This document shows, in pieces, positions 4,197-62,473 of a DNA stretch of 64,000 nt. The notes below the pieces were generated by a model. It worked only from the letters and a program-made list of their open reading frames with translations, was not told the origin of the DNA and did not search any database. The DNA comes from Bacteroidota bacterium (lineage in GTDB: Bacteria > Bacteroidota > Rhodothermia > Rhodothermales > JAHQVL01). The stretch lies in the NCBI GenBank assembly GCA_039111535.1, contig JBCCIM010000004.1, positions 1,722 to 65,721 of the forward strand, given 5' to 3'. A program made the position numbers and the translations under genes. Each line of letters starts with the position of its first letter. The stretch's first letter is position 1.

Positions 4197-6602
4197 ATGC
4201 TCAAGAATTACCTCAAAGTAGCTTTCCGAAACCTGCGCCGGCATCCCGGACAGACAGGCATCAACATCGTTGGGCTCGGTATGGGCATTGCCTGTGCCAT
4301 GCTTGCCATGCTGTTTCTGCATAACGAGGTCACGTACGACAAATTTCACGATGATATAGATGATATCTACCGGGTGACGTCGCGTTTTGCCAAAACCATC
4401 CAGTTTACTGTTGTCCCAGATCCGATGGTGCCGGCGGCAATTGAAGAGATCCCGGACATCGTTGATGGCACCAGGGTTTGGGCCAGTGAAGTGCTCATTG
4501 CACAAGATACCGAGTTGTACGAGGAGCAGGCATCGTACGTAGATCCTTCGTTTTTTGATGTGTTCTCGTTTCCATTGCTCTCGGGGTCGCGTGTTTTTGA
4601 TAAGCCACATGAAGTGATGCTTTCGCCGGCGCTTGCAAAGAAATATTTTGGCGAAACGAACCCGATAGGGCAGACCCTTTCTTTGCAACTCAATGAAGGC
4701 TTTCAGGCCTATACGGTGGTTGGGGTAACCGCACCCGTCCCCGAAAACTCGTCCATCGATTTTGACATGCTGCTTCCCTTTTCTCAGCGGTATGAACTGA
4801 AAGACCCTGCAGATGAAGAATCATGGGCGAGTTATGGGGTGACCGGGTTTATTCAATTGCGGGCAGATGCGGACACCGCGGCGGTTAGCCAGCAATTGCT
4901 CTCCCTGCTCGATAAGTACAGTGGGGAGCGGATTCGGGAGGAAGAGGCTGCACTGACAGACTATGCGTTTCTCCTTTCCCCACTGGCAAAACACCACCTC
5001 GCCGGGACGGGTCTGGGCGGGCACGGGATTTCATCGGGTACCAACCCGTCGTATGTCTACATCCTCTCAGTTATTGCTGGCCTTGTGCTGTTGATTGCCT
5101 GTTTTAACTTTATGAATTTGTCGATTGGACAGGCTTCGAGTCGGCTTAAGGAAGTGGGGGTGCGCAAGGTCATCGGCGCGGCGAGAAAGCAGCTTGTTTT
5201 GCAGTTTAGCTTTGAAGCGTTATTACTCAGCGCAATTGCTGCTGCCATAGGCGGGATCCTCGTGTATATCGCGTTGCCACATTTCAACAATTTAACGGGT
5301 AGTGCACTTTCCGTCGCATTTGTTGATGGGCCGCTTGTGGCGGGTACGTTTCTCTTTGTCACATGTACAACGGCTTTCTTCGCCGGCGCCTATCCCGCGA
5401 TCATGCTGGCCGGCGTTGGTTCTATGGCGGCTTTTGGAGGCAAATACAAATTTGGCGGGGCCAATTTCTTTACCCGGTCACTTGTTGTGTTACAGTTTGC
5501 CTGCACCATCATGTTTCTGATCGGGACGGTGTTTGTGAGCCAGCAGCAAGCGTTCATGCGCAATGCAAGCCTTGGCTTCGAGCAAGAGCAGCTTGTTGTG
5601 TTGCCCGTTTCAGCACCATCAAATCAGCCACAAGCCGGCGCGCAGCTGCTTGAACGGTTTCAGGCACATATGAATGGACATCCAACGGTCCACGCAATTG
5701 TCGGCACCTCCAATGCATTTGCTGATGGCAATTCAGCAACCATGAAAACCCTCGAAGACGGACGGCAGCAGATTCTCTACACCTACCGGGTTGACAATGC
5801 TTTTGTGGATGTAATGGAAATACCCGTCGCAACTGGCCGCAACTTCGACGCATCGAAACCTACCGATGCCCAGGCCGGCATTCTGGTCAATGAAGCGTTT
5901 GCCCGGGTGTTTGCTATGGATAATCCCGTCGGACAAGTGGTGCCAGTTGACCTGGTTGGTATCGACAATCCTGTTATTCTCGGGGTTATGGAAGACTTCC
6001 ATTTTGAAAGCCTGCACCAGCAAATCAAGCCGGTATTCTTCCATCAGCAAGCTGGCAATTACAAAATCAATTTCTTGCTGGCCCGCATTGCACCACACGA
6101 TGTGCCGGCCAGTATCGACGCGTTGCGGGCTGCATGGGGCGAATTGCAGCCCGGTTATCCTTTTGACTACTACTTCCTCGATGAAGCCATCGATGCCCAG
6201 TACCAGGCTGAAGAAAGATGGGCACGTGCCATGCGCTATGCGTCCTGGATTGCCATTTTCATCGCATGCCTGGGTTTACTCGGACTGACCTCAATCACCA
6301 TGTCCAAACGCACCAAAGAAATCGGAATCCGCAAAGTGCTCGGCGCTTCTGTGCCCGGATTGGTGCAACTGCTTTCTCGTGAGTTTGCGGTGCTTGTTGT
6401 CCTTGCAAACGTACTTGCGTGGCCCCTGGCCTTTTTCGCACTGGAGTGGTGGCTTGGGGCTTTCTCCTACCAGATCGATTTGAGCCTCATTGTTTTTGCC
6501 GGCATCGGTTTGCTCACGCTGGGCATCGCCTTGCTCACGATCAGCTTTCAAAGTATCAGAACGGCCCGGGCAAATCCTGTTTCAGCACTGCGATACGAAT
6601 AG
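4197..6602 (+). CDS. ABC transporter permease, duplicated FtsX/MacB type (paralog 2)
   Basis: 801 aa. Same N-terminal signature (MLKNYLKVAFRNLRRH). Motifs KEVGVRKVIGA and KEIGIRKVLGA. Tail ARANPVSALRYE. Confidence 0.9.
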   Translation: MLKNYLKVAFRNLRRHPGQTGINIVGLGMGIACAMLAMLFLHNEVTYDKFHDDIDDIYRVTSRFAKTIQFTVVPDPMVPAAIEEIPDIVDGTRVWASEVLIAQDTELYEEQASYVDPSFFDVFSFPLLSGSRVFDKPHEVMLSPALAKKYFGETNPIGQTLSLQLNEGFQAYTVVGVTAPVPENSSIDFDMLLPFSQRYELKDPADEESWASYGVTGFIQLRADADTAAVSQQLLSLLDKYSGERIREEEAALTDYAFLLSPLAKHHLAGTGLGGHGISSGTNPSYVYILSVIAGLVLLIACFNFMNLSIGQASSRLKEVGVRKVIGAARKQLVLQFSFEALLLSAIAAAIGGILVYIALPHFNNLTGSALSVAFVDGPLVAGTFLFVTCTTAFFAGAYPAIMLAGVGSMAAFGGKYKFGGANFFTRSLVVLQFACTIMFLIGTVFVSQQQAFMRNASLGFEQEQLVVLPVSAPSNQPQAGAQLLERFQAHMNGHPTVHAIVGTSNAFADGNSATMKTLEDGRQQILYTYRVDNAFVDVMEIPVATGRNFDASKPTDAQAGILVNEAFARVFAMDNPVGQVVPVDLVGIDNPVILGVMEDFHFESLHQQIKPVFFHQQAGNYKINFLLARIAPHDVPASIDALRAAWGELQPGYPFDYYFLDEAIDAQYQAEERWARAMRYASWIAIFIACLGLLGLTSITMSKRTKEIGIRKVLGASVPGLVQLLSREFAVLVVLANVLAWPLAFFALEWWLGAFSYQIDLSLIVFAGIGLLTLGIALLTISFQSIRTARANPVSALRYE

Positions 6603-6651: not shown

Positions 6652-9048
6652 ATGCTCAAGAGTTATTTCAAAAGCGCATTGCGGAGCCTGCGGATGCAAC
6701 CCGGGCTTGCACTTATCAACCTGTTTGGGCTGGCGGTTGGATTGGCCTGCTGCATCTTAATTACGCTTTACCTGCAAGATGAACTCGGATACGATTCTTA
6801 TCACGAAAATGGCCCGCAGATTCACCGTGTTGTGATCGATTACACAACAAACGGCGTCAAGCGCGAGCAGGGGTATACGCAGGGCATGCTGGCGCCGCTG
6901 CTAAAAGAAGAAATCCCCGAAATCAGTGATGCTGTACGATTGCTGGGCACCGGGGGCATCATGAGCTACGGAGACCGGCAGTTCAACGAAACGCGGCTTA
7001 TTGTATCAGACCCGGCTGTGTTTTCTGTTTTCAGTTTTGAACTGCTTCGGGGTGCGCCTGAAGAGGTGTTGTCAGCGCCCGGCAGTATTGTGCTTACGGA
7101 AATGATGGCTGAAAAATACTTTGGCCGTGCTGATCCTATTGGAGAAGTGTTACAGTTTAGCAACGACCGTCAATTGACCGTCACCGGCATTGTAGCTGCA
7201 CCGCCGGCGCAATCACACTTCACATTTGAAGGCATTATTTCCATGGCCACGCTGGACACTGCAGATGCGCCTTCGTGGATGTTCAGCGAATGGCTGTCTA
7301 CTTTTGTACAGACGTACGTGTTGCTCGGCGAGGGCACCACTGCACCACAGGTTGAAGCAAAAATTGCTGGCCTTGTTGAGCGCCGCGCCGGCGAAATGAT
7401 GCGAGGCGCCAACCGATGGGTTGACCTGTACCTTGAACCCTTATCTACGATTTATTTGACCTCTGAACGCGACGGGCTGGGAACGCGGGGCAGCCTGACC
7501 AATCTGTATGTGTTTGGGTTTATTGCCGGCTTTATTCTGCTGATTGCGTGTATCAATTTCATGAACCTCGCCACGGCGAGGGCCATGCGGCGCGCACGAG
7601 AAGTAGGGGTAAGGAAGTCTCTTGGGGCAGCCCGTCAACAGCTGGTTTTACAGTTTTTGCTAGAGGCGCTTTTTACTACGTTACTGGCTACGGCATTGGC
7701 TGTCGGGTTGGCTGGCTTGAGCATGGGGGCCTTTAATGATCTTGCTGGCAAATCCCTCGGGATACAAGCATTGCTTGATGGCCGCAATTTACTCGTGCTA
7801 TTTGCAATGGTAGGCATTGTAACCTTGCTTGCCGGCAGTTATCCCGCGCTGGTATTGTCTGGGTTTGAGCCCATGGGTGTGTTGAAAGGCAAAATGGGGA
7901 ACTGGCGTAGGGGGGAGGGCTTGCGTAAATCGCTCGTTGTATTCCAATTTGCAATCTCGATTGCGCTGATCGTGGCGACGGGCGTGGTGTACTACCAACT
8001 GCAATTTATGAAAGGCCAGCAGCTAGGCTTCGAAAAAGAGCAGGTGCTTGTCCTGGATTTTCAGGGAGATGATGAGGTACAGCAACAACTGCCTGCCATT
8101 AAATCTGAAATGCGCCGGCAGCCGGGGGTACTGGCCGTTTCAACATCGCAAACGGTACCTGGTCGTGGCTTGCCAGCAAGTGGCGGTGCGGTGCAACTCG
8201 CGGATGGCGTTTCGCAGGATATAAGCGTTGGACTGTACATGGTAGATTTCCCGTTTGTTGACTTGTACCAAATGGAAATGGTTGCCGGCCGTGATTTCAA
8301 TAGCCAGATCGCTTCAGATTCTACGGCGGCGCTCCTCTTGAATGAAACAGCTGTTGCCCAACTGGGCCTGTCTTCTCCCGAAGATGCCCTTGGGCTTGAA
8401 GCAAGCTTCTGGGGTAATGCTGGCCGTGTTGTGGGCGTAGTCCGCGATATTCACCACTTCGCCTTGCAAACCAGCGTTACGCCGATGGCCTTGCGGATTG
8501 ATCGGGATAACCAGTCCCTCTTTTCCGTGCGCATCGCACCAGAGAACATTTCACAAACAGTGGCGGCGTTGCAGGGCGTATGGCAGCAGATGGTACCAAG
8601 CCGGCCTTTTACTTACGAATTTTTGGATGAAACCTTTGATGCCCAGTATCGCGCTGAAGAACGGTTTGGTCGTGTCTTTTTTGTCTTCACCGTGCTGGCA
8701 TTGCTGATCGCGTGCCTCGGACTATTTGGGCTTGCTGCCTACACCGTTGCCTATCGCACCAAAGAAATTGGAATACGCAAAGTGCTTGGCGCATCAACGC
8801 AATCTGTGATTTTGTTGTTGTCAAAAGACTTTACGCAGCTTGTGCTGATAGCCGTCTGCCTGGCTACGCCGGCTGCTTACTTTGCCATGCAGTCGTGGCT
8901 AGAGGCCTTTCCTTACCGGATCGGTGTGCCGTGGTGGCTCTTTGTAGGCGCCGGCGCACTTGCGCTCATAATCGCGTCCCTCACGGTTGGCGCGCAGTCG
9001 CTTCGCGCTGCCAATACCAACCCGGTAGAAGCACTAAAGCGCGATTAA
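6652..9048 (+). CDS. ABC transporter permease, duplicated FtsX/MacB type (paralog 3)
   Basis: The track ORF starts at 6490 and overlaps paralog 2. The ATG at 6652 gives MLKSYFKSALRSLR, matching the N-termini of the paralogs. Motifs REVGVRKSLGA and KEIGIRKVLGA. Confidence 0.88.
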   Translation: MLKSYFKSALRSLRMQPGLALINLFGLAVGLACCILITLYLQDELGYDSYHENGPQIHRVVIDYTTNGVKREQGYTQGMLAPLLKEEIPEISDAVRLLGTGGIMSYGDRQFNETRLIVSDPAVFSVFSFELLRGAPEEVLSAPGSIVLTEMMAEKYFGRADPIGEVLQFSNDRQLTVTGIVAAPPAQSHFTFEGIISMATLDTADAPSWMFSEWLSTFVQTYVLLGEGTTAPQVEAKIAGLVERRAGEMMRGANRWVDLYLEPLSTIYLTSERDGLGTRGSLTNLYVFGFIAGFILLIACINFMNLATARAMRRAREVGVRKSLGAARQQLVLQFLLEALFTTLLATALAVGLAGLSMGAFNDLAGKSLGIQALLDGRNLLVLFAMVGIVTLLAGSYPALVLSGFEPMGVLKGKMGNWRRGEGLRKSLVVFQFAISIALIVATGVVYYQLQFMKGQQLGFEKEQVLVLDFQGDDEVQQQLPAIKSEMRRQPGVLAVSTSQTVPGRGLPASGGAVQLADGVSQDISVGLYMVDFPFVDLYQMEMVAGRDFNSQIASDSTAALLLNETAVAQLGLSSPEDALGLEASFWGNAGRVVGVVRDIHHFALQTSVTPMALRIDRDNQSLFSVRIAPENISQTVAALQGVWQQMVPSRPFTYEFLDETFDAQYRAEERFGRVFFVFTVLALLIACLGLFGLAAYTVAYRTKEIGIRKVLGASTQSVILLLSKDFTQLVLIAVCLATPAAYFAMQSWLEAFPYRIGVPWWLFVGAGALALIIASLTVGAQSLRAANTNPVEALKRD

Positions 9049-16123: not shown

Positions 16124-18484
16124 TTGAGTAAGGACTGGGCTATATTTTTCTATACTCACCACCAAGTACAGGAGAACACCGTGGCTGTAGCTCACCTCAG
16201 CAATTTTCGTAGACCCTTTCTGCTCTTCGTATTGTGTATCGCATGGATGTGTGTTACCCCGCTCTATGCGCAGCCAACCGCGCCAGGAGAGTCATCTGAG
16301 AATGTGGGTATAACGCCACAGGCCCGGGCTGTGCGCGTTACCGAAGCGCCGGCACTCGACGGCGACATCCTCAATGATCCGGTCTGGCAGGCAGCTGAGC
16401 CCGTCGAATCCTTCTGGCAAACGACACCGCTGGAAGGTGCACCTGCCACAGAGAGAACCGTAGTGCGCGTGGTTTTTACAGAAAATGCCTTTCATCTTGG
16501 CGTTGTTTGTTATACTGCAGACCCCGACAAAATCATCGTTTCTGATGCTGTCCGCGATGGCGCGCTCAATGGCATAGACAGCTTTCAGTTTATCCTGGAT
16601 ACCTACAAAGATACCCAGAGTGGTTTCGTGTTTGGTACAAGTCCAGCCGGCATCGAATACGATGCACAGGTAACCAACGAAGGTGCTGGTGTTTTTGGGT
16701 TTGCCGGCCAGACGAGCGGCTCAGGAGGCGGACTGAATGTGAACTGGGATGGATCATGGGAGGTCGCATCGAAAATTGGAGATTATGGCTGGAGTGCCGA
16801 GTTCACCATTCCATTCCGGACGCTGAGGTTTCCAAACAAAGACCTCCAAAGCTGGGGTGTTAACTTCCAACGCAATATCCGCCACAACAACGAAGTGGTA
16901 TTCTGGTCAAAGTTGCCCCGGCAGTTCAACCTGTACAAAGTCTCCATGGCCGGCACCCTCGACGGCCTGGAAGTGCCTGATACGCGCAACCTGAAAATCA
17001 TGCCTTATGCGCTCGGGCAGACCAGCATTGACCGTGTTGGCGACGCAGGCGGGGAAACAGGCGACTTTGGTGTAGATGTGAAATACAGCCTCACCCCCAG
17101 CATGGCACTGGACCTGACTTACAACACCGACTTCGCGCAGGTAGAAGTGGATGATGAGCAGGTTAACCTTGATCGGTTTAACCTGTTCTTTCCTGAAAAA
17201 CGCCCGTTCTTCCTGGAAAATGCCGGCTTGTTTTCGATAAAATCAGATGGCAGTATACGGACGGGAAGCGACGTAGAGCTGTTTTTCAGCCGGCGCATCG
17301 GGATCGGACCTAACGGAGAAACGGTGCCGATTATTGGGGGTGCCCGTGTATCAGGCAACGTGGGCAACAACACGAGTATTGGCCTGCTGAACATGCAAAC
17401 CGAAAAAATCGGTGGTATCACAGCGTCCAATAATTTCGCCGTAGCGCGTGTAGAGCAGCAGCTGAAGAACCGCTCTTCGGTTGGTGCTATGTTTGTGAAT
17501 CGAGAGGGCGATAGCGATCTCAGTCTTGATATTCCATACAACCGCCTGATTGGTGTTGACGGACAGTTAGGCATTGGTGACAATACAGAGATCAATGCAT
17601 ACGTAGCGCGTACCTTCTCGCCACATCTCGATGGTCGGCAGTACGCTTATGACATCTCGGCCCGCCGAAGTACCGAGTCATTGCTGATGACTTTCCAGTA
17701 TGCAGAAATTGCAGACAATTTCAATCCGGAAGTAGGCTTTATGGCAAGGCAGAGCTTTCGCAAGTTGAGTACCTTGATTTTCAACACAATTCGCGTAAAA
17801 GATTACTGGAATTTACTCGAAATCCGCCCGCACATTGCCTATCGCAGCTATTGGGGCTATGCTGATGGATTCCATGAAACGAACTTTGTGCACGTTGACA
17901 CGCACTGGGAATGGATGAGTGGCTTCGAAGTGCATACGGGTGTTAACTTCCGTAAAGAAGGCGTACGGAATACGTTCTCACTGGGCGGTGTTGAAATTCC
18001 ATCTGACACCTACGATTGGGCCGAAGCACAGCTTGTGCTGATCACGGATCCGCGAAAAGACGTCAGCTACAGTATTCGTTCATTTATTGGTGGCTTTTTT
18101 GGAGGCCGGCGTATTACCTCTTCTTCAAACTTGAATTTCCGTGGCGGCGAAAAATTCAACGGTCAGGTAACCCTGCAACGCAGCAATGTCTTTCTCGACA
18201 ATGGCGACTTTACAAGCAACCTGTTGCGGACGCGTTTGAGCTACTCGTTTACGCCCCGCATCTTTTTGCAAGGGTTGGCGCAGTACAATGATCTGGCTGA
18301 AATTTGGTCCTTCAACCTGCGGTTTGGCTGGCTGCAATCTGCAAATACAGGCTTGTTTGTGGTATTCAACCAGGCCAGTGCACTCGATCTGGCGGACGAC
18401 GATGGTATCCTTTACGGGTTTGGAGATTTGCAAATTCGCAGCTTGACGCTCAAGTATACCTACTTGTTTGATGTGTTTAAGTAG
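16124..18484 (+). CDS. DUF5916 / carbohydrate-binding-family-9-like outer-membrane protein
   Basis: Signal-like FRRPFLLFVLCIAWMCVTPLYAQ (a GTG at 16181 is an alternative start). N-terminal motif is WQTTPLEGAPATERTVVRVVFTENAFHLGVVCYTADP...DSFQFILDTYKDTQSGFVF. The C-terminus is long and beta-rich, ending LKYTYLFDVFK. Confidence 0.7.
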   Translation: MSKDWAIFFYTHHQVQENTVAVAHLSNFRRPFLLFVLCIAWMCVTPLYAQPTAPGESSENVGITPQARAVRVTEAPALDGDILNDPVWQAAEPVESFWQTTPLEGAPATERTVVRVVFTENAFHLGVVCYTADPDKIIVSDAVRDGALNGIDSFQFILDTYKDTQSGFVFGTSPAGIEYDAQVTNEGAGVFGFAGQTSGSGGGLNVNWDGSWEVASKIGDYGWSAEFTIPFRTLRFPNKDLQSWGVNFQRNIRHNNEVVFWSKLPRQFNLYKVSMAGTLDGLEVPDTRNLKIMPYALGQTSIDRVGDAGGETGDFGVDVKYSLTPSMALDLTYNTDFAQVEVDDEQVNLDRFNLFFPEKRPFFLENAGLFSIKSDGSIRTGSDVELFFSRRIGIGPNGETVPIIGGARVSGNVGNNTSIGLLNMQTEKIGGITASNNFAVARVEQQLKNRSSVGAMFVNREGDSDLSLDIPYNRLIGVDGQLGIGDNTEINAYVARTFSPHLDGRQYAYDISARRSTESLLMTFQYAEIADNFNPEVGFMARQSFRKLSTLIFNTIRVKDYWNLLEIRPHIAYRSYWGYADGFHETNFVHVDTHWEWMSGFEVHTGVNFRKEGVRNTFSLGGVEIPSDTYDWAEAQLVLITDPRKDVSYSIRSFIGGFFGGRRITSSSNLNFRGGEKFNGQVTLQRSNVFLDNGDFTSNLLRTRLSYSFTPRIFLQGLAQYNDLAEIWSFNLRFGWLQSANTGLFVVFNQASALDLADDDGILYGFGDLQIRSLTLKYTYLFDVFK

Positions 18485-18562
18485 GGAGTTAGGAGAGAGG
18501 AGTGTTGAGTTTGGAGTGTTGAGTTTGGAGAGTGGAGGGATAATCATGTGAGACTCGACACG
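18485..18562 (+). repeat. heptamer-phased G/T-rich repeat directly after a stop codon
   Basis: After the TAG at 18482-18484 come eight in-phase heptamers: GGAGTTA GGAGAGA GGAGTGT TGAGTTT GGAGTGT TGAGTTT GGAGAGT GGAGGGA. These are followed by TAATCAT GTGAGAC TCGACAC. Confidence 0.75.
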
Positions 18563-18564
18563 CC

Positions 18565-20916
18565 TCACACGTTGCGCAGTAAATCGGCCGGGTTGGCTTT
18601 GCTTAGGCGGAATACTTGTGACAGCAGTGTGAGGCCGGCCAGGAGGACAACAAGGCCAAAGGCAATCATGAACGGTGCCGGGCCAAGTGGCATGTGCTCG
18701 AGGGCAAACTGGTCGAGCATGAGCTTGAGGATGACGAAACCAACGGGTGCTGCCAGTACGCCGGCAATCATTAGCAAGACGGCAAACCGCCGGTTGGTCA
18801 ACTTGACAATCTGCCCAACCGATGCGCCGAGGATTTTGCGGATGCTCATTTCTTTCATGCGGCTCGAAACCTGCTGTGCTGCCAGGCCGAAGAGTCCGGC
18901 GCACGACAGGATGAGGGCAAACAAGGCGGCAAAATAAAAGATGTTGTTGATGCGGCCCGATTCAGCGAAGTAGCCAGCAAATGCCTGATCCTGATAAAAT
19001 GAGCTAAACGTAGTTTCGGGGAAGTTTTCCCGCCAGATGGCCGAGAGTTGATTGGTAATCGCTTGCGTAGCTTTTGGTTGTGTGCGTACCGCTAGAAAAA
19101 TGAACCCGTCACTATCAGTTGTGCGAAGGTAGGCCGGTTCGATGGCATGTGAGAAGTTCTGGAAGTAAAAGTCTTGTACAACACCCGCTACCCGGTACGA
19201 CGTACTGTCCAGCACAACAAGCTGATCAACAGCAGTATATGTACCAAGGAGTTCGGCCATGGATGCATTGATCACCACGTCAGCCGGACCGGCAGGATAT
19301 GTGCCGGCAATTAGTTTGGGGCGCACTACATCAAAATAGGTTGGCGCCACTTCGAATTCGAAGGCAGTATGGGAAGTCTCTGTAAGCTGCAGGTTTACTT
19401 CGTGCAGGGGATATGCACCAATATGGTTATTTGCGCCGGCTACGGCTGTAACGCCAGGTAAGGCGCTTGCAGCCTGGAGCATGGTGCCATAAGATTCTGG
19501 CCCTGTATGGAGGACGATTGTGTCTGCGTTGTCGTACCCCCAATCCGTATGTTGTAAATAGTTTTTGTTTAGCGTGAGGCCTACGCTGACGACCATCGTG
19601 ATCAGGGCAAGTACAAACTGTAGACCCAGCAGCGTCAACATGATGCGCTTCGGACCGCCCATTTGCAGCCGGCCGGAAAAAATGGTTACCGGCTTGAATG
19701 CTGATATGTAAAACGCAGGGTAAAGGCCTGATACAAAGCCCAGCGCCACAACGAGGCATCCCAGGTAAATCCATAAATCGGGCCGGGTCAACAGGTTGAA
19801 GCTGAGGTCGAGTCCATTGGTGATATACGTGAAACCGGGAATTAAAAAGCTCCGCGCTACCAATACGCCAATCACCAGCGCAAGACTACATAGCAAGATG
19901 TTCTCAGACAAAAACTGAAATATGAGTTGCCGTTGCTGGCCGCCCATAACCTTTCGAATCCCAATTTCCTGCATCCGCGTGTGCATGGCGCCCAGCGTGA
20001 TATTCATGTAGTTGAAGCAAGCCAACAAGAATAAAAACAGGGTGATGGTGGATAACACAATAATAGGACCCCAGTTAACCTGGTATGCGATGGTATATTT
20101 GACATCCGTTTTATTGTGCGAAATGTCTTTCAGGTTCTTCAGGTAGAACTGTTGGATCTGGTGTTCGAGCGGGGCTGCGCTTTGTTGTGCAGCCGCATAA
20201 GTTTTCAGGCTTGGGGTAACGGAGGCGCCCACTGCCGGCGTAGCAAGCTCAACAAATGTTGCGCGAACCAGGTTTGTCCAGCTGTTGAAATCGGTATCCG
20301 CTTTTTCCAGTACGTTAATCGGTAGCAGCAACGAAAAGCCAAGGCTGGTATTGGGGGGAAGTTTTTCTACAACACCACGCACGGTAAATGCCTGTTCTGG
20401 CGCGCCATCAATACTGAGATAGAGCAACTGTCCGAATGCTTCCCCTGTCGGGAAGTATTTGGCAGCCATTTCCGGTGTAATGACGATGCCATCCGCTGCG
20501 TGTAGGGCATCCTCGTTACCGGCCTGCATGGGGAAAGAGAACATCGACAGAAAAGAGGGATCAACAAACCGGGCGAACTCGGAGAAGTGGAAATCCTCAG
20601 TGATAACCAACACTTGCGCTTCGGCAACTCGGACGGCGTCATTTACCAGCGCTTGTTCATCGCGTAGTGCCGGCCCAAGCGGAGCCGGCGATTTGCCCCA
20701 AGTTTCGATCACTCCGTTCACGTCCGCTGTATGTTCTACAAGAAAGATTCGATCAGCTTTTTCGTGAAAGGTGTCGCGCTGTAGTTCTGAAAAGACAAAC
20801 AGATACGCAAGAATCCCACATCCCAGTGTGATTGACAGGCCAAACAGATTAATACCCGTTGCAACTTTGTTTTTGAGCAAAGCCCGATAAGCAAGTTTGA
20901 AATAGCTTTTCAGCAT
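18565..20916 (-). CDS. ABC transporter permease, duplicated FtsX/MacB type (paralog 5)
   Basis: 783 aa. N-terminus MLKSYFKLAYRALLKNK. Motifs QEIGIRKVMGG and KEMSIRKILGA. Tail SKANPADLLRNV. Confidence 0.9.
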   Translation of the reverse strand: MLKSYFKLAYRALLKNKVATGINLFGLSITLGCGILAYLFVFSELQRDTFHEKADRIFLVEHTADVNGVIETWGKSPAPLGPALRDEQALVNDAVRVAEAQVLVITEDFHFSEFARFVDPSFLSMFSFPMQAGNEDALHAADGIVITPEMAAKYFPTGEAFGQLLYLSIDGAPEQAFTVRGVVEKLPPNTSLGFSLLLPINVLEKADTDFNSWTNLVRATFVELATPAVGASVTPSLKTYAAAQQSAAPLEHQIQQFYLKNLKDISHNKTDVKYTIAYQVNWGPIIVLSTITLFLFLLACFNYMNITLGAMHTRMQEIGIRKVMGGQQRQLIFQFLSENILLCSLALVIGVLVARSFLIPGFTYITNGLDLSFNLLTRPDLWIYLGCLVVALGFVSGLYPAFYISAFKPVTIFSGRLQMGGPKRIMLTLLGLQFVLALITMVVSVGLTLNKNYLQHTDWGYDNADTIVLHTGPESYGTMLQAASALPGVTAVAGANNHIGAYPLHEVNLQLTETSHTAFEFEVAPTYFDVVRPKLIAGTYPAGPADVVINASMAELLGTYTAVDQLVVLDSTSYRVAGVVQDFYFQNFSHAIEPAYLRTTDSDGFIFLAVRTQPKATQAITNQLSAIWRENFPETTFSSFYQDQAFAGYFAESGRINNIFYFAALFALILSCAGLFGLAAQQVSSRMKEMSIRKILGASVGQIVKLTNRRFAVLLMIAGVLAAPVGFVILKLMLDQFALEHMPLGPAPFMIAFGLVVLLAGLTLLSQVFRLSKANPADLLRNV

Positions 20917-21084: not shown

Positions 21085-21148
21085 GGTGTTTTTTCGGGTT
21101 TTGGTGTTTTCGGGTTTTGGTGTTTTCGTTTTTTTGGGTTTTGGTGCC
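21085..21148. repeat. tandem 16-24 nt G/T repeat (GGTGTTTTCGGGTTTT-like, 3 copies)
   Basis: ggtgttttttcgggtttt / ggtgttttcgggtttt / ggtgttttcgtttttttgggtttt / ggtgcc, read directly. Confidence 0.8.
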
Positions 21149-21160
21149 AGCTTTGCATTT

Positions 21161-21199
21161 CCTCCTCACTCCAAACTCCTCGCTCCAAACACCTCACAC
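21161..21199 (-). repeat. heptamer-phased repeat (minus strand GAGGTGT TTGGAGC GAGGAGT TTGGAGT GAGGAGG)
   Basis: Plus strand reads cctcctcactccaaactcctcgctccaaacacctcacac. It has a 14-nt super-period similar to the 18485 locus. Confidence 0.7.
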
Positions 21200-24586: not shown

Positions 24587-24756
24587 AGTAAGTATATATA
24601 AAGTTAGGGAATACAAAATTGGTGGAGTTCAAAATTACCACTTATTCCACTAATACCTGCTACCGTAATGTTAAGCGCCGATTAACTGCGTCAAATTCCG
24701 CTTTTCTTCATTACAAGCTCAGCTTACCTTCATCAAATCGTTGCACCTCCTTCACA

Positions 24757-24800
24757 GAAAAAGGCCTGCATGTGGAAACCCTGTTCAGCATGCAGGCCTT
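24757..24800 (-). terminator. rho-independent terminator downstream of the 24901-25443 gene
   Basis: Minus strand reads AAGGCCTGCATG ctgaacagggtttcca CATGCAGGCCTT followed by TTTCTGTG. Confidence 0.7.
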
Positions 24801-24802
24801 TT

Positions 24803-24840
24803 GAATATCGAACATCGAACAAGGAACGCTGAATGTCGAA
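24803..24840 (-). repeat. degenerate heptamer-phased repeat (minus strand TTCGACA TTCAGCG TTCCTTG TTCGATG TTCGATA)
   Basis: Read directly. It lies between the perfect heptamer array and the terminator. Confidence 0.55.
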
Positions 24841-24852
24841 GGGAAATTCAAT

Positions 24853-24905
24853 CACTCCTCACTCCTCACTCCTCACTCCTCACTCCTCACTCCTCACTCC
24901 TCACT
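24853..24905 (-). repeat. perfect tandem heptamer array, (CACTCCT)7 on plus = (GGAGTGA)7 on the coding (minus) strand
   Basis: Seven exact copies plus a partial copy. The partial copy contains the TGA stop codon (24901-24903) of the upstream minus-strand gene. Confidence 0.95.
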
Positions 24906-25443
24906 TATCCACCGAATCGTAATCGAGTACGTCTTTGCCGGCTTCGGCTGAGAGGATGTCGAGCGCACAAGAGGCGCCTTCGCCGGCTGAGATGATGGCC
25001 TGACTGCGGCGCAGCTTGGTGCCGCGTCCGATCACATACAGACGATCAATATCGGTGCGTCCGTCTCGGTCCACCTGAACACCTGAAAGGGCCAATTCAA
25101 GGCCCAGGTTATTGCAGAGTTTCATGCCTTTGCCTTCTGCAATGATCAGGTATTTACTGGTATGGGTTTGTTTGTCGTCGGTAGTAATGGTAAACGTATC
25201 GCCAGCTGTAATCGACTCCACAAATTTATCTTCCAGACGTGCGCCGAAACTTGCTACTTGTTTGCGGCTGATTTCCTGAAACGCCGTGCCCGTCATTTCT
25301 TCGATGCCGAGGTAATTGTACAGCATAGCGTAATGCATCGCTGTTTCATTTTTACCAAAAACTGTTACTTCCATGCCTTTCTTCGCAAGAAAAAGGGCTG
25401 CACTCAAGCCGGCTGGCCCGTCGCCAACAATAATGGTACTCAT
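24901..25443 (-). CDS. thioredoxin-reductase-like flavoprotein consisting of the FAD domain only (180 aa)
   Basis: GxGxxG motif in IIVGDGPAGLSAALFLAKKG. YLIIAEGKG matches the ATG-type strand of TrxR. The C-terminal RLYVIGRG...QAIISAGEGASCALDI matches the TrxR FAD-domain end. There is no CxxC and no NADPH domain. The ATG at 25443 is preferred over the TTG at 25458. Confidence 0.7.
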   Translation of the reverse strand: MSTIIVGDGPAGLSAALFLAKKGMEVTVFGKNETAMHYAMLYNYLGIEEMTGTAFQEISRKQVASFGARLEDKFVESITAGDTFTITTDDKQTHTSKYLIIAEGKGMKLCNNLGLELALSGVQVDRDGRTDIDRLYVIGRGTKLRRSQAIISAGEGASCALDILSAEAGKDVLDYDSVDK

Positions 25444-44298: not shown

Positions 44299-45597
44299 AT
44301 GATATCGCGAAAAGATGCCAAATATCTAAGTGTCTTCCTGCTGGTGTTTGCACTTGTCGTTTGGGCCAACGCCAAAAGCACCGAAAACCCATGGGAGGTG
44401 TCCTTTCAACGGGGAGATACACGGGCATATGGCAGCAGTATCTTGTTTGATACGATGCCGTATCTATTTGAAAATAAAGAGATTAGGTCTATAAATTTTC
44501 CACCCTATACGCTGCTGGAAGATACCTCGATTGTTAACACGAATTACCTCTTCATTACAAGAAATTTCGATATAGACAAAGCAGAAGCGGACGCGCTGTT
44601 GCGGTATGTTGCCCGCGGCAATACCCTGTTTATCGCCGCTGATGTTATTCAACCACCCCTTAGTGACTTGTTGGATATTAAAACAGATGTTGAGTTTATA
44701 GAAAATGTTGAAAACCTGCAGGCGCTTGCAGAGACCAGTCTTTTTGATACGACGAGAATAAATCTAGCATACCCGGAAGTTGCCGCGCCGGGCGGATATT
44801 ATTATTCGACAGACTTGCTGTATTCGACGCTACAAAAAGTAAACCGGGAAGATTCTGCCAGTGAAGATTCTGCCAGTGAAGATTCTGCCAGTGAAGATTC
44901 AGTCGATGCACATTCGCCGGCGGTGACCCTTCCGTATGAAGTGTTGGGAAGTTATGAGGATGGGGGGTATAATTTTTTAAGAGTGGCGTATGGCGCCGGC
45001 GCTGTGCTGGTGAGTTCGGTGCCCCTGGCGTTTACCAATTTCAATATGCTGTACGAAGGCAATGATGCCTATGCGTATGCTGCCCTTTCCTATTTGCCTG
45101 ACCAGCTTACATACTGGGATGCCTACTACAAACCAGGCCGGCCCTCGCAGCAAACGCCCCTACGCTATGTGTTGTCATCAGAAGCTTTGCGGATGGCGTA
45201 TTACCTCGGCATATTTGGGTTGCTTTTTTTCATGGCTTCCAATGCACGGCGCCGGCAGCGGGTTATGCCAATTGTAGTGCCAAAAGAAAATCGAACGTTG
45301 GAATTTGCTACCACGGTGGGGCGGTTGTATTTCAACGAAGGGGACCACACGAACCTGGCGCAAAAGCAACTGGAGCAATTCAAACATTTTATGCACAGTA
45401 CACTGCATTTGCCCAATCGGCCATTGACTGAAGTAGAGACTTCAATAATCGCAGCCCGAACCGGCGTGCCCGCAGTGCAGGTAGACACGCTGTTTACGCA
45501 TTTGCTCGCAGTAGAACAAGGAAAGCAGGTCGATGCGGCAGGGTTAAGTGCGCTGGCCAATGAACTGGATCAATTTTATAAAGCAAGTACCCGGTAA
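44299..45597 (+). CDS. DUF4350-like protein with internal (EDSAS)n repeat
   Basis: N-terminal TM segment YLSVFLLVFALVVWA, GNTLFIAADV segment and a late TM segment YYLGIFGLLFFMA. Its position upstream of MoxR/DUF58 is as in known clusters. Confidence 0.6.
   Translation: MISRKDAKYLSVFLLVFALVVWANAKSTENPWEVSFQRGDTRAYGSSILFDTMPYLFENKEIRSINFPPYTLLEDTSIVNTNYLFITRNFDIDKAEADALLRYVARGNTLFIAADVIQPPLSDLLDIKTDVEFIENVENLQALAETSLFDTTRINLAYPEVAAPGGYYYSTDLLYSTLQKVNREDSASEDSASEDSASEDSVDAHSPAVTLPYEVLGSYEDGGYNFLRVAYGAGAVLVSSVPLAFTNFNMLYEGNDAYAYAALSYLPDQLTYWDAYYKPGRPSQQTPLRYVLSSEALRMAYYLGIFGLLFFMASNARRRQRVMPIVVPKENRTLEFATTVGRLYFNEGDHTNLAQKQLEQFKHFMHSTLHLPNRPLTEVETSIIAARTGVPAVQVDTLFTHLLAVEQGKQVDAAGLSALANELDQFYKASTR
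44848..44901 (+). repeat. 15-bp in-frame tandem repeat GAAGATTCTGCCAGT x3 plus a partial copy
   Basis: Read directly. It encodes EDSASEDSASEDSASEDS. Confidence 0.95.
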
Positions 45598-54789: not shown

Positions 54790-56178
54790 ATGGGCAAACT
54801 TCTTTGTATTTCTTACCGTTTTGCGCCGGAGACCTATCCGCTTGCCATTCGGGTGGACAACTTTGTAAAACACCTCAGCAATTCTTTTGAGATTGAGGCC
54901 ATCACGGCTGCGGAAGATGCACAGGCTCCGGATAATGTAAACACCCACCATGTGAAGCCGCGGGTACCAACCCGGATGATTCGCCGGCTCCGTAAGCTCC
55001 GGCTCGGTAAACTGGTCCCTTTCCTGTTCTGGCCCGACATGTTTCTGTTTTGGATCTGGCCGGCCTACAAAAAGGCCAAAGCCCTGATCAAGGCAAATCG
55101 GCCAGATGCTATTGTCGTGTTCATGATGCCCTATTCGCAGGGACTCGTTGGCATTCTGCTGAAGCGCAAATTTGGTATACCGTTAATCCTGAACCTGAAC
55201 GACTCACCTACGTGTTCGTCGTTACATCCGGTTTTTCCTTCTCGCCTACACTTTTATCTGGCAAAAAAACTGGAATCGCTTTACATCAGATCTGCAGACG
55301 CTATCGTTTATGTGTCCAAGCAGAACCTGGATCGACTAAAAGCAGACGTGCCGTCTGCAACCCGTGATCGGATGCATCTTATCCGACGTGGCGCACCAAC
55401 GGTGCAGCTAGATACGCTGCCTGAGAAGAAGGACAACAACCTGCACATCGTATATGGCGGCGGCATGGGAGGGTGGTACGCGTTCACTGAGCCTGAAAAA
55501 CCTTCTTTTGCCAAGCGGATGTACACTGCCTGGGAGCAATTAGGCACGTACAGGCTGGTAAAGCTTGATCACCGCAGTCACAGTCCCGTATACCTTGGGC
55601 TGGCAATCAAACAGTTGATTGAAAGAAAACCGGAGTGGAAAGGTCGGATTACGCTGGATATTTATGGCAACAAGTACCCGATGCCCCTGGTGAACCAGGT
55701 TTTACAGCAGCATGGCATCGAAGACCTGGTCAACATCAACGGTGTACTGCCACACAAAGAAGTACTACAAAAGGTGTTTGGTGCGGACGCGCTGTTTATG
55801 GCGCTACCCGAGCGGAATGATGGCTCTCCGGATGCGCGTATTTCTGCCAAAACCTACGAATACCTGATGAGCGAACGGCCAATTATTGCCGGCCTGTCTA
55901 TGGGGGAGAACACGCGCTTCCTTTCCCGTTTTGATGGGGTGCATATTGTCTCTCCGCGTGATGTGGATGCAATGGAAACGGCTATAGAAAATCTCGCAAC
56001 GCGATTCTTCGCCGGCGAATCGCTCAAAGCGAACCGGAGTCAGCATTTTGATGCGCTCGGCGTCCCCAAAAAGGCAAGGGACTTCGAAGCTGTTGTCCGA
56101 CACGCCATGGCGCCTGATACCTATCCACGTCCGGATACAGAGGCAGAAGAGACACCGCAGGTCTCAGCAACCGCATGA
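54790..56178 (+). CDS. GT-B fold glycosyltransferase (GT4/GT1-like)
   Basis: N-terminus is MGKLLCISYRFAPE. The C-terminal nucleotide-sugar pocket pattern is ISAKTYEYLMSERPIIAG. The ATG at 54790 is preferred to the TTG at 54778. Confidence 0.75.
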   Translation: MGKLLCISYRFAPETYPLAIRVDNFVKHLSNSFEIEAITAAEDAQAPDNVNTHHVKPRVPTRMIRRLRKLRLGKLVPFLFWPDMFLFWIWPAYKKAKALIKANRPDAIVVFMMPYSQGLVGILLKRKFGIPLILNLNDSPTCSSLHPVFPSRLHFYLAKKLESLYIRSADAIVYVSKQNLDRLKADVPSATRDRMHLIRRGAPTVQLDTLPEKKDNNLHIVYGGGMGGWYAFTEPEKPSFAKRMYTAWEQLGTYRLVKLDHRSHSPVYLGLAIKQLIERKPEWKGRITLDIYGNKYPMPLVNQVLQQHGIEDLVNINGVLPHKEVLQKVFGADALFMALPERNDGSPDARISAKTYEYLMSERPIIAGLSMGENTRFLSRFDGVHIVSPRDVDAMETAIENLATRFFAGESLKANRSQHFDALGVPKKARDFEAVVRHAMAPDTYPRPDTEAEETPQVSATA

Positions 56179-56417
56179 GCAGCTAAGTTTGATGAGGGAA
56201 TGTTGATTGGGGAGCGTATGATATATGCCAGGCTCACCTCCGCTTTATCCCGCGTTAGATTTGATATCCCCCGATACACCACAACGATCAGCGTCGCATC
56301 ACGAGTGGGCCGGCTAAAGATCAGATCACGACTTATTTAAGCAACCATTTAAGTGTGCGAAAAGGCCGCCGATAATACAGGCTCATAGCAAAACCCGATC
56401 ACTTAAAGGTATATATC

Positions 56418-57305
56418 ATGAGTCGGATTAAACCTGAAGATTTGCCAACTCCAAAGAAAGTCTCCAGGAAGCGAGCCCAGCAGTTGCTTGCACAATTCTC
56501 AGTTAGCGGCACCAGCAAGTACGACGTCTATGTCGAAGCAGCGCAGAACCTGATTCCAGGTGAAGCACTGGACACGATGGTGTTGCCAGAAAATGTCATC
56601 ACAAGCATCCAGAAAAAATTCCGCGAGCAGGGTCTGAACCGTAAAAGCGGATTTTACGTAATCAGCAAATCTACGGGAAGCGAAAAGAAAGGCTTCAAAT
56701 CCCTGCTGATCGGTCGTTATGCTTCCGTACCGTCTACCCGTGCAGCTGCCAAGCCGGCTCCGCGCAAGACGACAACGCGTTCTACCGCGAAAGCCAAACC
56801 AGCTTCACGGACACGGACCACGACAAAAGCAACGTCAACACGGCGCACTTCCAAAGCGTCTGCCGCTTCTAGCGCGAAGAAAGCAACAAAAGCTTCTACC
56901 GCTAAAGTGAGCCGCAAAGCCAAGCCTGTGGTAAAAAAAGCAGCACCTAAAACTGCTGCCCGCAAGACCACAGCTAAAAAAGCCGTGGCTAAAAAGCCAG
57001 TAGCTAAAAAGCCAGTAGCCAAAAAAGCTTCTGCCAAAAAGGTTGTTGCCAAAAAGCCAGCTGCTCGGAAAACTGCCGCCAAGAAAACAGTTGCTAAAAA
57101 GACTGTTGCCAAGAAAGCAGTAACCAAAAAGACTGTTGCCAAAAAGACGGTCGCTAAAAAAGCAGTAGCCAAGAAAGCACCCGTTGCTAAAAAGACCACT
57201 GCTCGGAAGACAACAGCTGCTCGCAAAAGCACAGCAGCTAAGAAAGCAGCTGCCAAGCCGGCAACTGCTGCAAAAAGAACAAACGGCGTGGCTGTGGTTG
57301 CATAA
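56418..57305 (+). CDS. histone-H1-like / AlgP-like Lys-Ala repeat protein
   Basis: A ~105-aa N-terminal globular part is followed by a ~190-aa tail of AKK/KKPVAKK/KKTVAKK repeats (pI clearly basic). Confidence 0.8.
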   Translation: MSRIKPEDLPTPKKVSRKRAQQLLAQFSVSGTSKYDVYVEAAQNLIPGEALDTMVLPENVITSIQKKFREQGLNRKSGFYVISKSTGSEKKGFKSLLIGRYASVPSTRAAAKPAPRKTTTRSTAKAKPASRTRTTTKATSTRRTSKASAASSAKKATKASTAKVSRKAKPVVKKAAPKTAARKTTAKKAVAKKPVAKKPVAKKASAKKVVAKKPAARKTAAKKTVAKKTVAKKAVTKKTVAKKTVAKKAVAKKAPVAKKTTARKTTAARKSTAAKKAAAKPATAAKRTNGVAVVA

Positions 57306-57389: not shown

Positions 57390-57516
57390 GTGCTACTTGA
57401 ACTGGGAAAGCCGCTGTCCTCCCGGGTGTCGCTAAGGATCTCAGGAGGAAATGATGCCCCTTTGGAAATACCCGGGACAAAAGCAGGAACACAGAATTAC
57501 GAACAGACTACCTTTA

Positions 57517-57558
57517 CTCGACACTCGACACTCGACACTCGACACTCGACACTCGACA
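57517..57558 (+). repeat. perfect tandem heptamer array (CTCGACA)6
   Basis: Read directly. It ends 77 nt upstream of the SOD start codon. Confidence 0.95.
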
Positions 57559-57634
57559 CGCGAACCCAACGCAGTTTTGGACGTACGAAGGCCGTCTTAC
57601 ACCTGTAATCACCCAATAAACCAAGAAGAGACTT

Positions 57635-62000: not shown

Positions 62001-62473
62001 AGGGCGCATTCATCATCGACGAGTTAACCGACCTGGTTGAAGAGGCTGTGCTTACCGAATTTGAGCGCATCAATGACCGTGGTGGTGTATTGGGTGCAAT
62101 GGAAACCATGTACCAGCGCGGTAAAATTCAGGAAGAGTCGATGCTGTACGAGCACAAGAAGCACAGTGGTGAACTACCCGTAATTGGTGTCAACACCTTC
62201 TTGTCGAAAAATGGCAAGCACGAGAACGAAGAAGCCCCTGTAGAGCTGATGCGCTCGAGTACGGATGAGAAGCAGCATCAGATTGATAACCTGGAGCGCG
62301 TGCAACGCCGGCACACGGAAGCAGCGCAGGCTGCCCTGAACACCCTGCAGGAAAAAGCGCGGGCTGGGGGTAACCTGTTCGAAGCACTCATGGACACCGT
62401 CAAAGTATGCTCACTTGGTCAGATTACGGATGCACTCTTTGAAGTAGGCGGACAGTACCGGCGCAATATGTAG
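59018..62473 (+). CDS. icmF: fused isobutyryl-CoA mutase IcmF (B12-binding domain + MeaB-like GTPase + mutase domain)
   Basis: The N-terminal B12 motif is [12 protein letters not shown]. The G-domain has the P-loop [17 protein letters not shown] and NKFE. The C-terminal ~600 aa are a methylmalonyl/isobutyryl-CoA-mutase-like barrel. Total length is 1151 aa. Confidence 0.9.

Follow-up and report, generated by a model that had tools for sequence, protein, structure and literature searches.

The element described here lies within a 64,000-nucleotide stretch of the Bacteroidota bacterium assembly GCA_039111535.1 (order Rhodothermales; contig JBCCIM010000004.1, positions 1,722 to 65,721), referred to throughout as the window, at the 3' end of a minus-strand oxidoreductase gene whose stop codon runs directly into seven perfect copies of the heptamer GGAGTGA. 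This array, (GGAGTGA)7, was shown to form the 5' arm of an approximately 103-nt hairpin element in the 3' untranslated region (UTR) of the oxidoreductase gene, between the stop codon and the terminator, and to belong, physically as well as statistically, to a dispersed family of hairpins whose arms are heptad-phased. Judged from their sequence, the heptamers that follow the array on its 3' side are the conserved opposite arm of this dispersed element, and not the product of array decay. Coordinates of the element, its parts and the other features of the window are collected in Table 1.

The heptamer array and its host gene

On the minus strand the oxidoreductase gene ends in ...GTG GAT AAG TGA and is followed by seven exact GGAGTGA units at 24900-24852, just as an earlier reading made from the letters alone (hereafter the sequence-only reading) had described. 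Tandem Repeats Finder (TRF) called this array at 24852-24905 with a period of 7, 7.7 copies, 100% matches and a score of 108. The TGA stop of the gene (24901-24903) doubles as the tail of a partial GTGA unit, and the array places TGA in all three reading frames, as that reading had also pointed out. Consisting of head-to-tail iterations of a unit within the 1-11 nt range and being longer than chance, the array is a simple sequence repeat (SSR). A search for GGAGTGAGGAGTGA with at most two mismatches returned 11 matches in the window, compared with 0.19 expected from shuffles, and all 11 fell within three arrays (at 18485, 21159 and 24852) located in three consecutive intergenic spacers.

The 180-aa oxidoreductase matches Pfam Pyr_redox_2 (E = 8e-15), and its homologs span 179-184 aa, with the array-bearing lineage longer by one codon, indicating that the C-terminus and stop are essentially native. 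The nearest named homologs belong to Rhodothermales or Bacteroidota metagenome-assembled genomes, and SodA shows 100% identity to the protein of an NCBI 'Bacteroidota bacterium' genome of this kind. An exact-sequence look-up of the oxidoreductase protein returned no match, probably because short-read assemblies are interrupted there, which is also the case at the array upstream of sodA described below.

On the 3' side of the array and the linker TTGAATTTCCC lie the heptamers TTCGACA TTCAGCG TTCCTTG TTCGATG TTCGATA (24840-24806, minus strand), and beyond these is an intrinsic terminator with a stem at 24789-24798 and 24763-24772 and a T5 run at 24758-24762. The sequence-only reading had reported both the heptamers and the terminator, and both are present, but the heptamers, which it had called degenerate, are not copies of the array and correspond to the conserved opposite arm. 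Several positions of the terminator stem differ between the window and the orthologous locus of a sister genome (L121, see below), with pairing kept in both. The array hairpin itself does not have the form of an intrinsic terminator, having AAA instead of a U-run directly 3'. The terminator and about 170 nt of spacer separate the array from the next start, that of a gene encoding a surface beta-barrel (outer-membrane) protein, upstream of which, near 24640, stands a TAATTTTG box similar to the -7 promoter motif of Bacteroidetes.

A dispersed family of heptad-phased hairpins

The pattern CCTTCGAYATTCRGNGTTCCTTG, which represents the 3' module of the element, matched the window once, with 0 matches expected by chance, the sister genome twice (L121 and L221), and 39 metagenome contigs from about 26 samples, with GC contents of 0.39-0.67. 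About half of these 39 contigs have the module within a hairpin of 105-160 nt, as its 3' arm, opposite a 5' arm with GAA every 7 nt. The metagenomic 5' arm reads GAACCGCAGAA TATCGAA CAAGGAA nnnnGAA nnnnGAA G, followed by a variable apex, and the 3' arm reads CC TTCGACA TTCGGAG TTCCTTG TTCGATA TTCTGCG GTTC; full-length metagenomic hairpins fold at about -55 to -93 kcal/mol. Module copies are mostly intergenic, and two copies are present in some contigs. Most long open reading frames (ORFs) in the GC-rich contigs looked spurious and gave no basis for taxonomic assignment.

Sixteen full metagenomic elements, in the selection of which the 5' arm played no part, were aligned (alignment A2). Their 5' arms share an invariant or near-invariant G-A at columns 11, 18, 25, 32 and 39, i.e. 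7 nt apart, with variable 4-nt spacers, and the phased triplet is GAA, not GGA, in 16/16 members. RNAalifold predicted 28 pairs for A2, with compensatory changes in eight of them. A covariance model, R1, was built from these 16 metagenomic hairpins only; its E-values are rough. R1 matched the window at 24800-24902 (minus strand) along its full length (model positions 1-123) with 43.8 bits and E = 5.8e-9, and the alignment places (GGAGTGA)7 as the 5' arm, with about 4 of the 28 pairs non-canonical. At 3 of 33 positions the window 3' arm departs from the consensus of the family. The arrangement that defines the family, G-R-A every 7 nt at least five times and Y-T-C every 7 nt, with the purine arm first on both strands, was found at the window element, and 24803-24900 is the only place in the window with at least five phased GRA-N4 units, which occur there on both strands (0 expected by chance). 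Folding of the sense strand gave -28.7 kcal/mol, versus -9.5 kcal/mol for the antisense strand.

The sequence-only reading had proposed a family of heptamer-phased repeats at gene 3' ends. Elements starting on the coding strand at a stop codon or no more than a few bases from it do occur in this lineage, at window positions 24901 and 18484 and at L221:19528, but the feature conserved among family members is GRA/YTC phasing and not GGAG. Among other control loci with an array and no complementary arm, R1 found no match in most. Rfam returned 0 matches for the whole window at gathering thresholds, chance-level matches only for the array locus at E <= 1, and just an unrelated group II intron for eight metagenomic members; the family is absent from Rfam 15. 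A scan of metagenomes for the array together with its 3' junction returned 0 matches.

Some further features were noted in the metagenome contigs. Two hairpin-module copies lie 2.1 kb apart in L234 (675-2870), and a 430-aa ORF that by eye resembles a group II intron reverse transcriptase lies somewhere in the same 6-kb stretch. In L237 (1046-1121) an Rfam group II intron domain is located about 800 nt from the hairpin element. These introns may home to the hairpins. The GC-rich contig L250 (6025-7034), which has a full element, carries perfect (GTTCAAG)6 and (GGTTCAA)10 arrays, both TTC-phased, about 1-2 kb away.

The element in a sister genome and other relatives

The sister genome is represented by L121 and by L221 (20.6 kb, reached via SodA), 31 kb in all, within which three copies of the element were found. 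The L121 oxidoreductase has 93% protein identity to that of the window, with 51% of 4-fold sites differing, and the orthologous site reads GAC CGG TGA GTGA (GGAGTGA)7 GTGAATTTCC.... Its array has seven perfect units that are 100% identical to those of the window, and the flanking spacer 3' of the array is 24% mismatched; the chance of zero substitutions in 49 nt at the spacer rate is about 2e-6. Variation in array length, which the sequence-only reading had thought possible, was not seen at the 24852 locus, as both available genomes have seven units.

R1 recovered the orthologous copy at L121 689-790 (47.4 bits, E = 6.2e-10), a copy at L221 8463-8571 on the minus strand (46.3 bits, E = 1.2e-9) and, as a partial match, L221 19468-19514 on the minus strand (20.9 bits, E = 0.0075). 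The last of these, at L221:19468-19526, reads TAG C (GGAGTGA)4 GGA AATTTT CCTTCGACATTCGGGGTTCCTTG... and begins 1 nt past the stop of an unrelated gene. Linkers similar to that of the window, GTGAATTT and GGAAATTTT, precede the module in L121 and in this paralogous L221 copy. At L221:8473-8568 a 5' module is followed by the opposite arm in the form of a perfect (ATTCGAC)7.6 array.

In six relatives with 80-83% protein identity (L122-126 and L129) the array is absent and the TGA is one codon earlier. In L127 (80% protein identity) another perfect hairpin, of 28 bp and -47 kcal/mol, stands right after the stop of the same gene (2027-2110), its arms made of the heptamer-like units GTGATTA, GTGGTTG and GTTTTTA. 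With this hairpin and the array at the same place, the stretch from stop to terminator is a hot spot for elements of this kind. The array itself is restricted to a lineage, in which it has been long-lived.

Other arrays in the window

The arrays of the window follow GGA/TGA-N4 or YTC-N4 phasing, and the heptamer units of the lineage are likewise of the YTC-N4 type (ATTCGAC, ACTCGAC, ATTCGGC, TTCGAYA) or the GRA-N4 type. The array reported after the stop at 18484 begins directly after this TAG (18482-18484), as claimed. It pairs with a CTCGACA-type arm, which ends at the stop (18565-18567) of a convergent FtsX-type permease gene, such that the element exactly spans the 80-nt gap between two convergent stop codons, and it folds at -24.4 kcal/mol (z = -3.0; 0/200 shuffles as good).

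The array reported after the stop at 21257 on the minus strand does exist, but it lies about 60 nt beyond the stop, on the far side of the upstream gene's terminator and upstream of the next gene, and so is not part of a 3' UTR. This third region has no significant fold (z = +0.6), and the sister genome has a diverged version of its 21159 array that is shorter by about 14 nt. Immediately beyond the G-type array comes an 8-nt-period C/A-rich array of about six CACCAAAAC-like units (21091-21146), upstream of an FtsX/MacB permease gene; L121 has a shorter AAACACGA array in this position (4699-4723).

The YTCGACA array noted at 57517 is also present, but not beside a stop, being 72 nt upstream of sodA and past the terminator of the previous gene, and R1 gave this region no significant score (12.2 bits, E = 1.6). 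The unit at this site, which immediately precedes the conserved sodA leader, varies among close relatives whose SodA proteins are 94-100% identical: it is (ACTCGAC)n in the window and L220, (GGCATTC)n in L222 and L223, and a degenerate (AATCAAC)n in L221. Three independent short-read contigs begin inside this array (L220:1-40, L222:1-25, L223:1-35).

Of the two weaker look-alikes that had been suspected, the one after the stop at 56178 amounts to four or five weakly phased units, and is clearer in its L221 ortholog, where period-14 arrays extend from the stop onward; after the stop at 62473 nothing periodic was found. The L221 array (7842-8220) consists of 98-nt tandem units holding a repeated GC-rich motif, ...CATCCTGAGCCCCGCGAAGGATCTCT..., and period-14 heptamer pairs (GATTGCT GAATCCG) that start at a TGA apparently ending the upstream glycosyltransferase ORF, for which the gene call stops earlier, at 7599; the window stretch 56179-56225 is a weak remnant of it. 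Tandem repeats within coding sequence were also noted. A histone H1-like HC2 protein gene (56418-57305) has long 15/30/45-nt coding repeats of the AKKxx type, which explain several TRF rows at 56972-57196, and a perfect 15-nt repeat of 3.5 copies, GAAGATTCTGCCAGT, lies in frame at 44848-44900, encoding a 5-aa repeat inside a 461-aa ORF.

Table 1. Features of the 64,000-nt window discussed in the text
Feature	Coordinates	Strand	Evidence
Whole heptad-phased hairpin element: 5' arm, apex, 3' arm	24800..24902	-	Covariance model R1
5' arm, GTGA + (GGAGTGA)x7, perfect, overlapping stop codon	24852..24904	-	Sequence, TRF, L121
Short apex/linker TTGAATTTC	24843..24851	-	Sequence, R1 alignment
3' arm, conserved TTC-phased module CCTTCGACATTCAGCGTTCCTTGTTCGATGTTCGATATTC	24803..24842	-	Family consensus, pattern matches
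Oxidoreductase gene, 180 aa, small FAD/NAD(P), 'thioredoxin-reductase-like'	24901..25443	-	ORF, translation, Pfam
Intrinsic terminator, separate from array hairpin, 10-bp GC-rich stem + T5	24758..24801	-	Sequence, fold
Second element: degenerate GGA/TGA-phased array (18485-18537) + CTCGACA-type arm	18485..18568	+	Sequence, fold
Third G-type array, degenerate (GGA-N4)x4-5 at 21159-21197, + 8-nt-period array	21091..21197	-	Sequence, TRF
YTC-type array (ACTCGAC)x6.9, 97% identity, at 57516-57563, three GAA-phased units before it	57484..57563	+	TRF, sequence
Weak NNNN-KGA phased stretch, 4-5 units, after TGA stop 56176-56178	56179..56225	+	Sequence; no TRF call

GGAGTGA arrays in other phyla

A scan for (GGAGTGA)3, with one genome per species, returned at least 120 loci. 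The matches listed, to which the counts below refer, include Planctomycetota, Campylobacterota, cyanobacteria, Proteobacteria, Bacteroidota and Clostridia, and ORFs were called crudely, as greedy longest ORFs of at least 100 aa. Forty-five arrays lay 3' of a same-strand ORF, with the stop within 12 nt in 20 of these, and 16 of the 20 stop-adjacent ORFs had strong Pfam matches, several of which reached the C-terminus. For single-arm arrays, a stop was found within 12 nt in 13/29 sense cases compared with 2/19 antisense cases (Fisher p = 0.024). The stop-adjacent placement seen in this lineage appears in other phyla as well. Of 118 loci, 36 had a complementary array of at least two TCACTCC units no more than 150 nt downstream, and only 1 of 114 had it upstream; hairpins with the purine arm first are therefore common among GGAGTGA loci. 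Where two-arm hairpins were followed by a convergent gene, the stop of this gene lay within 10 nt of the end of the C-arm in 10/13 cases.

Two candidate explanations for these loci were rejected. A role of the array hairpins as intrinsic terminators does not fit the finding of a T-run after only 3/35 of them, and GGAGTGA is not special as a unit combining stop codon and Shine-Dalgarno (SD) motif, as heptamers of matched composition make arrays with similar frequency; (GGAGTGA)3 occurred at 23 loci in viral contigs, and the composition-matched controls at 9, 12 and 46 loci. GGAGTGA arrays at L001-L120 were usually flanked by the variants GGAGTTA, GGAGTAA, GGGGTGA, GAAGTGA and GGAGATA. About a quarter of them lay within crude antisense ORF calls, TCACTCC being open in all frames.

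A probable slippage-homogenised hairpin arm and alternative explanations

The explanation that we consider probable, though well short of certain, is that the element is a heptad-phased 3'-UTR hairpin resembling a repetitive extragenic palindromic (REP) sequence or a miniature inverted-repeat transposable element (MITE), one arm of which has been overwritten by replication slippage. The full-length R1 match, the conserved 3' arm, the heptad phasing of 5' arms that played no part in selection, the recurrence of array and module in the sister genome, the difference in folding between the strands, and the persistence and lineage restriction of the array speak in its favour. The 7-nt phasing of the arms would offer 3-nt microhomologies at 7-nt spacing, at which replication slippage could have duplicated one unit (GUGA-GGA) and homogenised it over the whole 5' arm, with ongoing slippage keeping the array pure. 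The unit turnover at the sodA site and the length change at 21159 fit such slippage and homogenisation acting on arms that were already 7-nt-phased. G-U pairs would allow the homogenised arm to keep pairing with the UUC-phased 3' arm, in the coding-strand RNA only. Elements of this type would lodge hard against the ends of ORFs, where only a TGA-bearing purine arm might be tolerated because TGA closes every reading frame; here the element would supply the stop one codon downstream of its position in array-less relatives. If functional, the element would most likely act as a REP-like RNA hairpin in the 3' UTR, protecting or processing the mRNA 3' end or hindering the terminating ribosome, which is the weakest step of the proposal; selfishness or self-renewal as repeat DNA may just as well account for its persistence.

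Several observations weigh against this explanation. R1 is not specific to the family, as it gives 20-39 bits, with a maximum of 39.5, to unrelated (GGAGTGA)n...(TCACTCC)n hairpins from other phyla, and part of the score of the full-length window match thus reflects generic architecture. The 39 metagenome contigs were chosen by the 3'-arm pattern, which makes the conservation of this arm partly circular. The window hairpin does not fold clearly better than dinucleotide shuffles (z = -1.8), or than sequences with only the 3' arm shuffled (z = -0.6), and any U/C-rich stretch would pair with the G/A-rich array about equally well. Neither a transposase nor a target-site duplication nor a GTAG/CGTC tag was observed with the family elements, and the L121/L221 assembly has 4-6x coverage and frameshifted genes. 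Lastly, an unchanged 7-nt consensus unit has a probability of about 0.007-0.15 under concerted evolution alone, a hint of selection for the unit itself, which is beyond what slippage explains.

The first alternative is a free-standing neutral heptanucleotide microsatellite (LSSR7) produced and kept up by slippage, lying beside an unrelated decaying repeat and contacting the stop codon as an effect of tolerance. Heptamers are the commonest class of long SSRs in bacteria and have been attributed to slippage, according to PMC4679880, and the number and phylum range of GGAGTGA loci, the similar frequency of composition-matched units and the performance of the window hairpin against shuffles are all consistent with this. 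We consider it unlikely, however, given that the array and module occur together at two non-orthologous loci with a similar linker, that a third locus combines the module with its opposite arm as a different perfect array, that R1 matches the window element along its full length, and that the array has been perfectly kept across 51% 4-fold-site divergence.

A second alternative, by analogy with TRAP, is a periodic protein-binding array, in which a protein, ring or filament would read the 7-nt-spaced G-R-A or Y-T-C on RNA or single-stranded DNA, with the hairpin masking or presenting the sites. The invariance of the triplets beside variable 4-nt spacers points in this direction, as do the retention of the sequence across GC contents of 39-67%, a unit more conserved than concerted evolution predicts, and the 36 purine-arm-first hairpins, compared with a single reversed one, in other phyla. 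Against this, no candidate protein was identified, slippage alone can produce periodicity, and the compensatory changes in the basal stem favour pairing over a single-strand reading, such that this alternative appears quite improbable.

A sponge, which the sequence-only reading had listed among several possible roles, would use the GGAG or GGA motifs to tie up the anti-SD end of 16S rRNA or a protein of the CsrA type. Seven AGGAG motifs do lie in a 3' UTR that is probably transcribed, but neither version was upheld, and we regard both as very unlikely. SD cores stand upstream of 3/45 predicted genes versus a 7% background, i.e. they are not enriched in the window, and the organism is apparently without SD pairing. 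Absence of SD usage is typical of Bacteroidota. The conserved triplet of the family is G-R-A, with GAA rather than GGA in most members, which argues against an SD or a CsrA GGA logic, and the model alignment places the GGA motifs in the stem and not in loops. The lack of any excess of GGAGTGA arrays over composition-matched controls and of any Rfam match also speaks against a sponge.

The least likely alternative, to which we give hardly any credence, is a phase-variation switch in which gain or loss of units would change how the oxidoreductase, or the outer-membrane protein encoded downstream, is expressed: 7 is not a multiple of 3, SSRs are classic switches and the downstream gene encodes a surface protein, but the array is past the stop with TGA in all frames, so that unit changes leave the protein unaltered, a terminator stands between it and the next gene, with neither frame nor promoter spacing affected, and the copy number is the same in two diverged genomes. 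The anti-SD/CsrA sponge and phase-variation readings, together with the G-quadruplex reading considered below, are unsupported.

A broader proposition than the slippage-homogenised hairpin arm, which we offer as speculative and consider unlikely, is that these hairpins belong to an undescribed superfamily spread over many bacterial phyla. Its members would be purine-arm-first hairpins of 7-nt units with fixed G-R-A/Y-T-C, abutting stops and often filling the gaps between convergent genes; they would be read by a dedicated protein or spread by some mobility mechanism, and would seed many heptanucleotide microsatellites (of the STRR-like or LSSR7 kind) through a slippage-homogenised arm.

Relation to described repeats

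Heptamers have been reported as the commonest long SSRs in bacteria, with an origin by slippage proposed (Mrazek, Guo & Shah 2007, as cited in PMC4679880). Like the long SSRs termed LSSR5-11 in PMC4679880, the window array is a non-coding tandem heptanucleotide repeat longer than chance in a non-pathogen; unlike them, it is one arm of a conserved hairpin and has remained perfect over a deep divergence.

Arrays of G-rich heptamers close to stop codons are already on record for other bacteria. The GGGNATC arrays of Xanthomonas and Nostoc are transcribed and show a preference for positions 0-50 bp past the stop on the coding strand (Rehm et al. 2015, PMC4692102). The window array shares this stop-adjacent position, to the extent of overlapping the stop, whereas the GGGNATC repeats have G3-4 tracts, a preference for four units and G-quadruplexes, with no partner arm or hairpin described (PMC4692102). 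The GGAGTGA unit has no G-tract longer than GG and the array has seven units, neither of which corresponds to a G-quadruplex repeat with tracts of at least three and a four-unit preference.

The sequence-only reading knew of no such arrangement in Bacteroidota-like genomes, but heptamer arrays have been reported from Bacteroidetes: TAACTGA direct repeats are known from Beggiatoaceae, cyanobacteria and five Bacteroidetes, with forward stop codons that limit coding overlap (MacGregor 2015, PMC4679880). These resemble the window array in being intergenic heptamers with stop codons in the forward direction, the presence of which varies among close relatives, but they have another unit, are mostly immediately upstream of starts, and have one indirect repeat and no predicted RNA structure (PMC4679880). 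The window array, with its different unit and its position after a stop and not before a start, is not part of this network.

The short tandemly repeated repetitive (STRR) heptamers of heterocystous cyanobacteria were reportedly described by Mazel et al. in 1990 as dispersed, tandem and intergenic, with units such as CCCCAGT and others. They differ from the window array in taxa and units and are not known to be defined as hairpin arms.

REPs, with the related REPIN and BIME elements, are dispersed intergenic palindromes, mostly downstream of coding regions and between convergent genes and often transcribed (Di Nocera et al. 2013, PMC3733652). REPs carry GTAG or CGTC tags, pairs of them fold into larger hairpins, and mRNA stabilisation has been hypothesised as a role of the elements (PMC3733652). 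The hairpin family is REP-like in being multi-copy, dispersed and mostly intergenic. It differs in having arms of about 40 nt with strict 7-nt triplet phasing, shared across contigs of very different GC content, and the A2 consensus has no GTAG/CGTC tag at its ends, nor has the window copy.

Sponge RNAs of the CsrB/RsmZ type resemble the array in bringing many GGA motifs together in one RNA. Theirs, however, are in the loops of a stand-alone small RNA, whereas those of the window are part of a 3'-UTR stem, and most family members have GAA in their place; the combination of GGA in loops, conservation as GGA and a stand-alone RNA that characterises CsrA/RsmA sponges was not found here. No description of a heptad-phased hairpin family was found in the literature, and to our knowledge both the family and the interpretation of a perfect array as a homogenised hairpin arm are undescribed.

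Significance

The present locus suggests one way in which bacterial heptanucleotide arrays may arise, namely from hairpins that are already 7-nt-phased, one arm of which is then overwritten by slippage. Heptamer arrays also have a practical consequence, in that they break short-read assemblies and truncate adjacent gene calls. If transcribed beside stop codons, the hairpins could influence termination, the stability of the mRNA or the termination of translation, as has been proposed for REPs.

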